The notes beneath the pieces are model-generated. The model saw only the letters and a program-made list of their open reading frames with translations. It searched no databases and had not been told where the DNA came from. 64,000 nucleotides of DNA from Eledone cirrhosa (lineage: Eukaryota). Below are positions 14,700-27,700 of the stretch, one piece after another. Every line of letters starts with the position of its first letter. Within the stretch, counting starts at the first letter, position 1. A program made the translations under genes and the position numbers. The DNA lies in NCBI GenBank assembly GCA_964016885.1, contig OZ024740.1:82212001-82276000 (forward strand), in the 5' to 3' direction.

Positions 14700-17000
14700 G
14701 TTTAGACTGGGTCCGTATTTGTTAATAAAGTGAGATTCCTTGCTGATGCGCTGGGTTTGGGTGGCATTATCTTTAAATTTGTAGAGGGCAAAGATTCTGA
14801 AGTTGGGATGATTTTAGGCGGCACAGGTATCAATGTGTTCACTGAGTGGTATTTTCCTGTATTCCCGTATTTTAATTTGGGATCTATGGACAGTCATGCG
14901 TTGGCGGAGACTGTCTTTGGTTTGGCCTTTGTATTGTTCTCGACAAGCTGAGCAAGTTAATACATATATTAGATTTTCTGATGCGCATGTGAAATTGTGT
15001 TTTACTATAAAACGTTGTCCTTCTTTGACATATAATTCCGAACCCTCTATTAGGTTGATGCATATGCCACATTTAGGTCTATCGCATTTTTTTACTGTGG
15101 GTTTCGTTGTTGTCGTTGGCAGTACTTTGGCATGTGTTAGGATGTTTTTCATTGACTTAGATTGTCTTTTTCTCTTTATGATATCGTCTGTTCGTAGGAT
15201 TTGGTTCATTCTATGGTCCTTTTTCAACACAGGGATGTTCTGGAGGATGGTGTCAATGCCCTATTGTTGAGGGGGTTGTGTGTGGAGATGTATGGAAGAG
15301 CTTTTAGTTTCGGTTGATTTACTTTAGGGTGTCTAATGTCCTGGGTACTGAGTTTTAGGGCACGTTGTATTCCATTGTCAATTAGTGGTGCAGGGTAGTC
15401 CCTGCTTATGAGTGTGTCCTTTAGTTCTTGTAGCCGTAAGTAGCACGTGTTTTTATTGGAGACTATAGTACAGATTCTCTTGGCTAAGTTGTAGGGAATA
15501 TTAATGTTAACGTGTCTAGGGCGGCAAGAGTTGAAAGGAAGATACTGCTTGGTGTCTGTGGGCTTGTAGTATATGTCTGTTTCTATTTTTTTGTTATGGA
15601 TCTTAATGAGCATGTCGAGGAAGGGGAGTTGTTGATGGCTGTATTCCATGGTGAAGTTAATATTCGTGTTGAGCCCATTTATAAGGGTGTGAAATTCTTT
15701 AAGTTTCTCGATGTTTTCGTGCCAAAGGATGAAGCAGTCATCTAGATATCGCTTCCAGTTCCTTTCTATGTGTAAGTGGAGAGTGTTTCCAAATTTGTTT
15801 AGTACTTTAGTGTAGAGGGTGATTTCCAGGTATCCCATGACTAGGTTGGCATAAGTGGGGGCTGTTTTCGTTCCCATAGCGGTCCCAGATTTCTGCCTGT
15901 TGGGTTTGTTATTGAAAACGAAGTAATTGTTCTCCAAGATAAATTTAAGTCCCTCTATCACAAATTCTTTTTTGATGCGTTGTGGGTGTTCATTGTGGTA
16001 ATTATCCAGCCAGAATTGGATAGCTTCTATTCCTATGTTGTGGGGATGTTGGAGTATAGGTTGACTACATCGAACGTCACTAGTAGGGTTTGTTCAGAAA
16101 GGGGAATATTAGGGAGGTGATTGAGCATATCTAGGTCGTCCCTTATATAGCTTTTGATGTGTTTGAGAACAGGCTTGAGAAGGGTTTCAATGAAGTTGCT
16201 AAGGCGGTGGGTTTCGCAAGCGGGGCCTGCTATCATAGGTTTTAATTTGAGATCATTGGGTGAGGGGATATTGATGACCATGTCTGTGGCTTCCTTGCAT
16301 GCCTTACTTATTAATTCGCTTTTATGTACTTTAGGGATACCGTAGAAAAGGCCGGATTTACTTGTGAAGTCTGTGATGAAGCTGAATTCCTTGTTAGTGA
16401 GTCCTTCTTTGTATTAGTTGATCCGTGTTTTTAGGTTTCTCATAATTTTCTGTTGATTGTGGTGTTCAGCCTTTTCGTAGTATATTTCGTTTTCCAAAGT
16501 GGAGAGCGCTAAGTTGATATAGATTTCTGTCTCCTTTTGGACTACTGTACTCCCTTTATCAGCCTCTTTAATTGTAATGGTTCTGTCGGTTTTTAATCTA
16601 TATAATTCTTCACATTATTTCTTGTTGTGGTTTGGCTTGTGTTTTTGCCTGTGCAAGTGTTGGTAAGGGAAGTTTGTGATGTGTTCACAGAATTCGTCCA
16701 GGATTTTATTTTCTACCTTTTGATGGGGTGTAATTGCTTCTATTTCTGGCTAATGATTCATCCTCATTGTACTGGTCGAATAGTTCTTCACTGAATCGTA
16801 ACTTTCTACAGAAGTCTGTGATGTCTTCCTTCATTTCATAGTAGTAGGGTCAATGTGAATTTAAGACCTTTGGAGAGTAAGTTTATAAGGTTGGGTGTTG
16901 GTTCTGAACTAGTTAGATTGATCATTTTTAGTACTCTCGGTTTCTCCTTCTTGTCTTGTGTTATTTTGTTTGCCTGTATTTGTGTGCTGTGTCTAAAAAA
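14700..17000 (-). pseudogene. PLE ORF2: reverse transcriptase + GIY-YIG endonuclease, frameshifted
   Basis: ORF fragments 16033-16281, 15224-15961 and 14814-15230 are collinear with the 24918-27188 protein. Confidence 0.9.
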
Positions 17001-17166
17001 TGGTTGGGGTAGAGGGGTTGTCTGCTGATGTTAAGTGGTCTCCTGTGTTTGTTATATTCCTTGTTGTTGTAAAATGTGGTTCGGGTTCGTGGTTGTAGAT
17101 TGAATGGGGTGTTCCTGTATTGCGAGTATGGATGTGTGTTTCTATGTGTCATGTTGGATTGTGGTG

Positions 17167-24654: not shown

Positions 24655-24771
24655 TATATATATATATATATATATATATATATATATATATATGTATGTA
24701 TATATATATATATATATATATATATATATATATATATGTATATATATATATATATATATATATATATATAT

Positions 24772-27700
24772 CAACAAGCCGAACCTCAATACGTCCGAAA
24801 CTTCTATACAAGACCACACAACAACAGGGGAAATACCATTAGATATAATAATACCAATGAAAAAACATTCCAGAAAAATCATTTTTTAGACCAAGGCTAC
24901 AGGACTCACGACACCCGGTGGCACAAACCGATTTTGAAAAACCGAAAATAATTAACATTTCAAATACAAACCTTTCAGCCCAACAAGTAAAAATTCTCTC
25001 CAAAGGTCTGAAATTCACACCAACACCACAATACCCTAACCCCAACGAGATAAATGACGATATCTCACACTTCTGTAGAAAATTACGTCTCACAGAGGAA
25101 TTCTTTGACAAGGAGAATAACGACGAATCAATTGTACGGAATAAAAGCAGCTACAACCCAACAAAAGGTAGAAACAGAGTTCTGGACAAATGTTGTGACC
25201 ACATAGCTACTTTCCCATACAATGAACTACCGCAACCTAAACCCAAACCCAACACAAGTCGAAGAGAATGGGAGATTATCCATGAACTAAAAAACAATAC
25301 GGACATTGTAATTAAGGAAGCGGACAAGGGAAGTACTGTTGTCATTATGGAGGCTGAAAAATATAAAAATTCTATGCTCTCTCTCTTACAAAATACTAAT
25401 TACTATGAAAGAGTAAAAAACTACCAGCAATCAAAAATAATGACCAAATTAAACACACTGATTTATCGATACCAGGAAGACCTAACTAAAAAGGAACGCG
25501 ATTATTTAACAAATTTTGAATACAAAACCAGCAACCTTTACGGACTTCCGAAGATCTACAAATGTAAAATAATCAACGATGCCTGTAAACAATGCACCTC
25601 AGCCTGCGTGAACACACAATACCCCACAGACCTTAAATTAAGACCAATTGTAGCGGGCCCACAATGTGAAACACACAGATTGAGCAACTTTATAGACATA
25701 CTACTGAAACCAATACTGAAACACATACCAAGCCTTGTAAGAGACGATCTGGACCTCTTAAACCACCTCCCCAAACATGTCAACAACGACACTATTATTG
25801 TGTCTTTCAATGTAGTGAATCTCTACACAACGATCCCACACCAATACGGACTAGAAGCAATAGGATTCTGGCTAGAGAAATATCCCAATGAGATACCTGA
25901 CAGAATAGAAAAAAGCTTCATCAACGAGGGATTAAAATTCATCCTACAGAACAACTTTTTTGATTTCCATGGCAATACTTACAAGCAAATATCGGGGACT
26001 GCGATGGGCACAAAAGCCGCTCCAACTTATGCCAACTTAGTCATGGCATACTTAGAAGTCCAGATATATAAACAGTCCAAATCAAAATACGGATTGAACT
26101 TCCACAAATATTTATCAGAGAATTGGAAACGCTACTTGGGTGATTGCCTCATTCTTTGGTCCCACACACTCGACCAACTGAAGGATTTCAAAAACTTAAT
26201 AAACGGCATCAATAACCACATCCAATTCACAATGGAATACAGCCAAGATCAACTCCCATTTCTGGACATCTTAATCACAAAAAAAGACACAAATATCGAA
26301 ACTGACATACACTACAAACCAACAGATTCCAAACAATATCTGCTATTCACCTCCAACCATCCAAAGCACACGAAGACGAACATTCCTTTTAACCTAGCAA
26401 GAAGAATTTGCACAATTGTCTCCAATTATGAAACGCGAAATAAAAGACTTCAAGAATTAAAGGAAATTTAACTTGAGAGAGAGTACCCACTATTACTAAT
26501 AAATAATGGAATAGAAAGGGCTAAAGCAATAGGCATTGATGAATGACGGAAACAGAAACAAATTCAAGGTACGTCCAATATTCTATCATATATCTCAACA
26601 CACAACCCAAGAAATGCGGAAGCTTACAACACTATTCACAATAACATCCCACTACTAAAACAAAACCCAAGAATGAAAAAAGCCCTTGAAACACACAAAA
26701 TAATCAAAAGCAAAAGATAACCAAAATCACTGAAAACATTACTCACCAATGCCAAATTACCTACCACAAACCCACAACCAAGTATAAAAAAATGTGGTCG
26801 CTCTAATTGTGGAACCTGCACTCACCTCATTGAAGGCAACACGTATACATTTAAATCAGGACAAAATTTTACTGTAAAAAATCACTTCACTTGCTCATCA
26901 AAAAATCTAATTTATGCCATTAAATGTAAAGGATGCAATGAAGATTATATAGGACAAACTAAACTCACACTCAGAAACAGAATGACAGTTCATCGCCAAC
27001 AATTACGAGATCCAACCACGAGACAGATACCACTAAGTGCATATCTAGACATTTGCGCAAGTAATAAGACACCCAAATTCCAAGTCTTCCCATTTTACCT
27101 TTGCGCTAACAATACAACAGAACAAATGCGAATAAATAAGGAAAATAAGTTTATTCAAAAATATAGACCAACATTAAATAAGGTTTAATATACATTATGT
27201 CAACACCACAATATGACATACACACACACACATAACACCTTCTACTTTAGAAAATAAAAACCCGAACTAAATAAACCTTAACATAAGTTTGCACTGGCAA
27301 TACAACAGCAAACACGAAAAAGTAAGGAAAATATGTTCTTTCAAAAATATTCCTACTAAAGGAATCACTTTCCTACACACACACATACACACACACACAA
27401 TATATATATATATATATATATTCTCTTCATCTTAACATGCTAACCATACTCCCACACACATAACACCCATACACACACATAACAACCTCCACACCTACAA
27501 CTCCCTCCCCATTTCTACTAATAGAACCACTTTCCTACACACATATATATATACACACACACAAAATATATATTCTCTCCATCTTAACATACTCGCACAC
27601 ACACACATAACACCCATATACACACACACACAACTTCCTCCCCCATCTCTAATAATAGAATCATCTTCCAATACACACATACACACACACACACACACAC

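Follow-up and report, generated by a model that had tools for sequence, protein, structure and literature searches.

A Slippery Heptamer at the Junction of Two Overlapping Frames

The window, a stretch of 64,000 nucleotides (nt) within the 3-Gb genome of Eledone cirrhosa (contig OZ024740.1, positions 82,212,001 to 82,276,000), harbors two junctions at which an upstream open reading frame (ORF1) meets the frame of a reverse transcriptase (RT) carrying a GIY-YIG endonuclease (ORF2). The junctions belong to two families, named A (17 kb) and B (24.9 kb), of probably Neptune-type, endonuclease-bearing (EN+) Penelope-like elements (PLEs). Sequence comparison indicates that ORF1 is very probably joined to RT-GIY-YIG by a programmed -1 ribosomal frameshift on the heptamer U_UUU_UUA. 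The junction signal itself is real, conserved and clade-wide. The features of the two window copies are as follows:

13339..13856, minus strand: downstream terminal repeat (pseudo-long terminal repeat, pseudo-LTR) of the family A copy
14690..17000 (lower end approximate), minus strand: family A ORF2 in the -1 frame, with RT, Cys linker and GIY-YIG
16961..18234, minus strand: family A ORF1, from ATG at 18234 to the TAA stop at 16963-16961, 30 nt 3' of the heptamer
16994..17000, minus strand: slippery heptamer U_UUU_UUA of family A, exact in 88 copies (384 genome matches, first 100 listed)
18289..18805, minus strand: upstream pseudo-LTR of the family A copy, sharing 93% identity with the repeat at 13339-13856
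24772..24951, plus strand: 3' remnant of family B ORF1, 59 codons and stop, adjoining a (TA)n run
24882..24888, plus strand: slippery heptamer U_UUU_UUA of family B, exact in 91 copies (299 genome matches, first 100 listed)
24882..27188, plus strand: family B ORF2, 768 codons in the -1 frame counted from the heptamer, with RT, C-x4-CxxC linker and C-terminal GIY-YIG
24896..24922 (arms 24896-24900 and 24918-24922), plus strand: weak 5-bp stem GCTAC/GTGGC of family B, stability within the shuffle range
27189..28324 (upper end approximate), plus strand: 3' untranslated part and terminal repeat of family B

An earlier note on this DNA, made from the letters alone, had placed TTTTTTA at minus 17000-16994 and plus 24882-24888, and it was found at both sites in the context AA(C/T)CA-TTTTTTA-GAC. 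As described there, the upstream frame reads NHFLD at both junctions with the heptamer phased U_UUU_UUA, and ORF1 stops soon after the slip site, at the 11th codon past Leu in the 17 kb copy (TAA 16963-16961) and at the 21st in the 24.9 kb copy (TAA 24949-24951). The -1 frame is likewise open at both junctions from the heptamer to INL/INI..LSKGLKF. The two copies had been regarded as diverged members of a single family; the divergence stands, but with 55% identity in RT and 42% in the ORF1 core they represent separate families, whose ORF1 tails could not be aligned apart from the heptamer. Across 12,980 codon positions of RT bodies (20 related elements), only 7 showed in-phase T6N, and owing to this rarity the junction heptamers are not explained by chance.

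Both window copies are dead, as stops are present in both and frame breaks in addition in the 17 kb copy. In the latter, ORF1 contains a single frame break near 17300-17320 (intact genome copies encode 436 amino acids, aa), ORF2 is disrupted by stops and frame breaks, and a 518-nt direct repeat flanks the copy as pseudo-LTRs. The family B copy is 5'-truncated at about 24772, a complete ORF1 being visible in other copies only, and the first of the in-frame stops in its ORF2 lies at 26469-26471.

Copies of Families A, B, and C in the Genome

Copies were dispersed across many contigs of the host genome. They were counted by eye among the first 100 listed matches per family in position-ordered pattern searches, and hence were not picked by similarity; the searches demand exact flanks, and older copies escape them. 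Apart from the exact heptamers, family B showed 1 substituted copy, 3 one base short and 5 one base long, and family A 3, 5, and 4, respectively. A third family, C, is identical to B at 52% of the ORF1 core and 63% of the RT start, and has the same heptamer in the same phase, reading P-F-L-G; of its first 100 listed of 191 matches, 94 were exact, 5 substituted, 1 one base short and none one base long. Thus, the majority state was T6A in all three genome families, with no T7 or T4 consensus of the kind the earlier note had named as contrary evidence. In family C, a C-run located 35 nt past the heptamer placed 69 copies (first 100 listed of 128) in the -1 register, 13 in the fused register and 18 in the third register, showing that fused copies occur but are not favoured. 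This C7 run is hypervariable (e.g., L103-L121), with more than 20 C in some copies, and one added C yields a single ORF1-ORF2 frame of as many as 1181 codons.

Intact copies of the three families contain two overlapping ORFs, which departs from the single ORF of canonical EN+ PLEs, and the RT frame opens 0-15 codons upstream of the heptamer. Among seven family B copies fetched for an intact ORF1, four also carried the full 768-codon ORF2 from the heptamer. ORF1 comprises 400 aa from its ATG, while ORF2 displays the landmarks LSKGL at 39 and DKG before its first ATG at residue 156; the earlier statement that the 24.9 kb RT frame has no early ATG is thereby borne out, as LSKGL precedes this codon. 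Residues 1-155 of B ORF2 share 53-60% identity with A and C, compared to 58-59% for the remainder, and, being as conserved as the rest, the pre-ATG part is under coding selection. In KMINL of the 17 kb copy, the ATG (16925) represents the minority state, with 6 ATG against 51 ATT (57 matches, 59 family A loci). The unit measures about 4.8 kb and has terminal repeats, and partial copies adjoin it in tandem or inverted order, as around the B copies.

Conservation of the Junction in Other Samples and in ORF1 Proteins

The T6A run, its phase and the -1 overlap were conserved well past the two window copies, in genome copies, other samples and protein homologues. An RT alignment search yielded 90 loci from contigs of metagenomes and metagenome-assembled genomes (MAGs), of which 56 reach the RT N-terminus. 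All five loci that combine an ORF1-profile match with the RT N-terminus keep an in-phase T_TTT_TTA (4) or T_TTT_TTG (1) and the -1 relation, and two further loci carry the heptamer with ORF1 interrupted by the contig end. When metagenomes were scanned with the ORF1 alignment instead, 595 candidates came up, none of which could be confirmed. In a quick RT tree of 50 rows, from which 10 rows with short frames, including L190 and L193, had been left out, five of the T6 loci of other samples clustered on a single branch with A, B, C, and locus L189 (98 by the Shimodaira-Hasegawa-like approximate likelihood ratio test, SH-aLRT), and pairwise RT identity among the tree rows listed went down to 31-47%. 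L189 contains A_AAA_AAC at the identical place and phase. Both A_AAA_AAC and G_GGU_UUU/C are among the most shift-prone -1 sites according to the available text of PMC5009743.

The ORF1 profile search recovered at least 826 clusters (50% identity) at E ≤ 0.001. No fused forms were seen either among the best 150 ORF1 relatives, none of which exceeds 496 aa, or among the 120 best RT relatives, whose lengths do not exceed 803 aa in a search that admitted up to 1344. The source names of the RT relatives are bivalve-symbiont metagenomes, read as host DNA, and RT-GIY-YIG proteins of the clade (P0191, P0216, P0220, P0236, P0295; L257-L261) filed under bacterial symbiont genomes or MAGs are probably host DNA as well.

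The heptamer in this phase encodes Phe-Leu (FL), which was sought in 156 ORF1 proteins, 110 being kept (core at least 40 bits, tail at least 60 residues) and 46 dropped. FL was present within the last 40 residues of 83 of the 110 homologues and within the preceding 40 residues of 2 of 106, and shuffles gave a mean of 9.6 and a maximum of 21. Within the last 45 residues, the residue before FL was K, E, Q, M, or W in 0/84 proteins, with 17.4 expected (P 3.6e-9, ignoring relatedness); FL pairs elsewhere in the same proteins were preceded by these residues in 46 of 88 cases. Going by these proteins, the pre-FL residue, always one capable of a U-ending codon, is a trace of x-U UUU UUR. At the DNA level, the joint probability of the slippery codon choice arising from codon usage alone was about 1e-11 over ten families, uncorrected for relatedness.

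Probable Frameshifting and the Alternative Explanations

Under programmed frameshifting, most ribosomes would read NHFLD.. and stop 10-20 codons later to give ORF1 alone, which would serve as the bulk RNA-packaging partner, and a minority would slip, yielding a fusion of ORF1, RT and endonuclease (about 1150 aa) whose junction reads NHF(L/F)R. As U_UUU_UUA is described to yield 70-80% Leu and 20-30% Phe in the available text of PMC5009743, junctions NHFLR and NHFFR are both predicted. A -1 ribosomal frameshift is the most likely explanation because splicing, re-initiation and polymerase slippage each fail to account for the phase, the -1 relation or the swap of heptamers.

It is improbable that ORF2 has a start of its own, reached by re-initiation past the ORF1 stop or lying at a near-cognate codon, with the heptamer being incidental. 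ORF2 residue 13 is indeed encoded by ATG in family C and by GTG in family B, but these codons arise from a Trp codon of ORF1, and the first Met precedes the conserved NLS motif in just one of the ten families with the T6 heptamer (T6 families), so that the conserved ORF2 ATG which the earlier note would have counted against frameshifting is absent. A related group couples its ORFs by stop-start (nine loci of one record set, with ATGA in 5 and a near-stop ATG in 3), yet it is without the heptamer and lies on a different branch. Moreover, an own start leaves unexplained that the phase is locked in 84/84 homologues.

Still less probable is that TTTTTTAG acts as a splice acceptor and ORF2 is read from spliced RNA omitting part of ORF1. 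T6AG does resemble a pyrimidine tract followed by AG, the residue after FL starts with G in 64/84 homologues, and introns are known in PLEs (available text of PMC3846280 and PMC8557442). However, AG is impossible at this place in 20/84 homologues, and L258 and L197 read T6G-T; an acceptor would also require no ORF1 phase, whereas the phase is fixed. As for a donor, the sole phase-2 GT common to five ORF1s falls on a Trp-Phe/Leu junction and reads GTT, residue pairs incompatible with GT at this candidate site occur in 23 of 117 rows, and CAG/GTAA in B and C is in phase 1 and would rejoin the ORF1 frame. Hence, no intron spanning the junction was indicated, the acceptor-like AG not being kept in relatives and no frame-compatible donor being found. 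Four sequencing runs of unrecorded kind had a DNA-like, 3'-rising profile; of their 93 joints, the 15 listed include none at the junction, and the runs are uninformative on splicing.

Slippage of RNA polymerase on T6, with an added U giving fused transcripts, is just as improbable as splicing. A homopolymer exists, one extra base restores the right frame, and copies one base longer make up 5/100 in B and 4/100 in A; but such slippage has no need of codon phase, which is locked, and relatives with G_GGU_UUU carry just four T. Fused RNAs should also be copied back into the genome, yet longer and shorter copies are similarly rare (5 vs. 3, 4 vs. 5, and 0 vs. 1 in B, A, and C). That the active element is one continuous ORF broken by decay or assembly error, or that Phe-Leu is a mere peptide motif, can practically be dismissed: fused family C copies exist (six long-frame loci, chosen for being fused), but the copy counts have already largely refuted continuity, the split state being the majority in A, B, and C and the fused register of family C (13/100 listed) no commoner than the broken one (18/100), and the improbable slippery codon choice also counts against this explanation.

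Several observations nevertheless weigh against programmed frameshifting on the heptamer. The unstable C-run of family C fuses the frames in the 13 copies noted above; L221, a 37% identical relative with 65 nt of upstream sequence, is without a perfect heptamer; and 27/110 ORF1 homologues have no FL in their last 40 residues. The profile that collected these proteins contained the FL column, which may have caused slight enrichment, although the rows kept reach at least 40 bits on the core alone. In addition, a stimulatory stem-loop or pseudoknot, expected 5-9 nt past a programmed -1 site, was not seen: no downstream fold beyond that of shuffles was found in A, B, or C by a test outside which long-range or protein-dependent stimulators fall. 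The 80-nt fold was better than shuffles in only two of ten T6 families (L183, z -3.0; L187, z -3.2), and the 45-nt fold in one of ten.

RNA Folding or Ribosome Queuing as Possible Stimulators

The stem GCTAC/GTGGC, which had been put forward as a weak candidate stimulator, is present in the predicted fold of family B, yet its stability was no better than that of shuffles (z -0.76 and -0.62); at the 17 kb copy, where no stem had been evident, family A showed no predicted fold at all. A simple pseudoknot scan returned none for A, B, or C. A pseudoknot in L197 (one of ten T6 families) beat 60 shuffles; it has a very long loop and was discounted. A DTRW motif 21 nt past the heptamer was also rejected as an RNA element: each of its three synonymous positions has changed between B and C, and it appears to be a peptide motif of one sub-clade.

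Slipping could then be promoted by the heptamer nearly alone, or by a ribosome terminating at the nearby stop and holding the next one on the slip site. A disome spans about 10 codons. The commonest position of FL is 12 residues from the ORF1 end: the ORF1 stop lies fewer than 10 codons past Leu in 0/84 homologues, compared to about 35 expected under a geometric null, and exactly 10 codons past it in 25/84 (24 if the alternative FL of one protein is used), with the tail residues unconserved. Even with a floor at 10 codons, 9.1 such cases would be expected. In yeast and human cells, stop codons are sites of disome enrichment, as reported in the available text of PMC9661723.

On the other side, 24 of the 25 ten-codon cases fall within one half of the ORF1 tree, where this label needs 10 changes, three of them forced by strong branches, and 59/84 homologues have other stop distances. 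In DNA, a spacing of 30 nt between heptamer and stop was found in three of ten families (A, L190, and L197), none with a fold; the spacing is 60 nt in B and 3 nt in L187, a counter-example that also has the best 80-nt fold. It is therefore plausible, though on balance rather unlikely, that a deep EN+ PLE clade frameshifts without RNA structure, with the 10-codon stop queuing the next ribosome on U_UUU_UUA, and that relatives use hairpin-backed G_GGU_UUU or stop-start ATGA instead. If it is true, enzyme output would depend on ribosome load. Whether RNA structure can give way to a terminating ribosome as the stimulator of frameshifting is directly testable at this site.

Related Groups With Other Couplings of ORF1 to RT

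A distant EN+ PLE group (L235-L256; 13 loci on WLWD01 contigs, some near-duplicates) has a different ORF1 of 360-400 aa with a QQGF-like end. An in-phase G_GGU_UUU/C is present in 12/13 of these loci, the ORF1 stop following mostly 0-6 nt after, and a hairpin GAC..GCA/TGC..GTC recurs about 9 nt downstream. The L236 copy is cut at its 5' side upstream of position 4988, where it adjoins a short (CCCTAG)n array resembling telomeric repeat. In a second set of EN+ PLEs (L206, L208-L211, L214, L216, and L217, on JGI858J16261 contigs), ORF1 reaches 715 codons and its stop overlaps, or lies directly next to, an ATG in the RT frame, a stop-start coupling in place of a slip site. The ORF1s of the G_GGU_UUU and stop-start groups showed no profile similarity to the present ORF1 (probability 0.1 and 0.3, respectively).

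Predicted Structure of ORF1

ORF1 is predicted to consist of a three-helix, coiled-coil-like core followed by a disordered tail rich in N, Q, and R. AlphaFold2, run on 117 sequences, modeled three long helices at residues about 80-250 with a predicted local distance difference test (pLDDT) of 93-98, and a disordered tail. Fold comparison returned generic helical bundles only (best Z 8.3, root-mean-square deviation 5.0 over 145 residues), and Foldseek gave nothing at E ≤ 0.001, the viral fold library being outside these searches. No Pfam family was common to two of the 117 members, and no match to PDB sequences fell below E 0.0089, those seen being coiled-coil designs only. The Atlas features of ORF1 lean toward Gag-named clusters (0.83), a score that shuffles attain as well. 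In the structural sense, a Gag-like nature of ORF1 is thus not supported, the three-long-helix model having generic helical matches only; the gag-pol likeness would lie in the translation strategy.

Classification of the Elements and Other Elements of the Window

The elements are probably Neptune-type EN+ PLEs, an assignment that draws on motifs compared by eye. A PLE-type RT is indicated by an RVT_1 match with E 1.3e-06, just under the curated cut-off, and by the motifs LSKGLKF, DKG, and GTAMG, which by eye resemble the PLE rows of Fig. S1 in the available material of PMC8557442. GIY-YIG (PF01541) scored above the cut-off at ORF2 residues 675-765 of 768, and also in the window at 26721-27185. 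The pseudo-LTRs, the tandem or inverted partial copies and the 5' truncation are likewise in keeping with EN+ PLEs. The linker C-x4-CxxC, followed by 24 residues to the next Cys, fits the CX2-5CxxC and long spacer of Neptune, its spacing resembling by eye the Neptune rows, unlike the short Nematis rows. Overall, the motifs fit the Neptune rows of Figs. S1-S2 in that material by eye: the RT3/RT4 motifs are near the XtropNep4 and DreriNep1 rows, and the C-terminal GIY-YIG, terminal repeats, and (TA)n neighbours are further points of likeness. A simple core pattern of the hammerhead ribozyme gave no match in 4 loci, no covariance-model search having been made. The elements do not fit the endonuclease-less (EN-), telomere-associated Athena/Terminon or Coprina groups, as GIY-YIG is present and the copies are dispersed.

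The window also contains a second, distant Penelope-like element at 28859-31841 (plus strand), with RT and GIY-YIG matches and about 25% identity to family B; its frame break near 29740 sits within a (CA)n run, suggestive of slippage at a microsatellite. Decayed, 5'-truncated pieces of the present clade, without the junction, lie at 54580-56006 and at 20537-21028 (minus strand). A 3.3-kb element occurs at 6401-9679 and 59528-62816 in opposite orientations, 97% identical, and has a weak RT-like match to family B (26-28%). Fold-back palindromes were observed at 34713-35463 (751 nt, 98%) and 45997-46882 (about 890 nt, 80%).

Comparison With Known Systems

In annotated EN+ PLE proteins of this clade the first 400 residues are missing and the start codon is a guess, and an ORF1 family of at least 826 clusters has been overlooked in annotation. 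If the slip is true, the enzyme would be produced, like that of retroviruses, in a fixed proportion as a fusion with ORF1, with a bearing on PLE particle assembly and on reconstituting transposition.

Canonical EN+ PLEs are described as single-ORF in the available text of PMC8557442 (Craig et al., 2021), in which the legend of Fig. 1 marks ORF1 as separable by a frameshift (#) with a pseudoknot, the clade being unnamed in the legend; among the matches listed from its supplement, neither is given for Neptune. In the available text of PMC6431247, two-ORF PLEs are the endonuclease-less forms. According to the earlier note, a T6A frameshift between a coiled-coil ORF and RT is reported for Athena/Terminon elements. 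A literature search outside which subscription papers, Repbase reports and figures fall came upon no paper that describes frameshifting in EN+ PLEs, and the available texts of PMC8557442, PMC3846280, PMC12602865, PMC3905857, and PMC5408684 make no mention of programmed frameshifting for Neptune. A frameshifted ORF1 in some PLEs is already known from the legend in PMC8557442.

The killifish Neptune (available text of PMC12602865) has two ORFs, the small upstream one without database matches and with no frameshift mentioned, and is like the present elements in having an upstream ORF. Some PLEs carry esterase ORF1s (available texts of PMC3905857 and PMC5408684); unlike these, the present ORF1 contains neither esterase nor any other Pfam family. 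With the two-ORF PLEs of PMC8557442, as available, the present elements share a predicted coiled-coil-type ORF1 upstream of a PLE RT and, probably, a frameshift junction, and they differ from these and from those of PMC6431247 in the C-terminal GIY-YIG and in that no pseudoknot was found.

Similar to HIV-1 gag-pol, the elements place a structural-type ORF before a polymerase in the -1 frame, with the same heptamer in the same phase, and family C also continues with GGGAA. The HIV-1 site has a downstream stem-loop. The present elements differ from gag-pol in being non-LTR elements with no protease or integrase, an ORF1 without a capsid match, and no comparable stem-loop.

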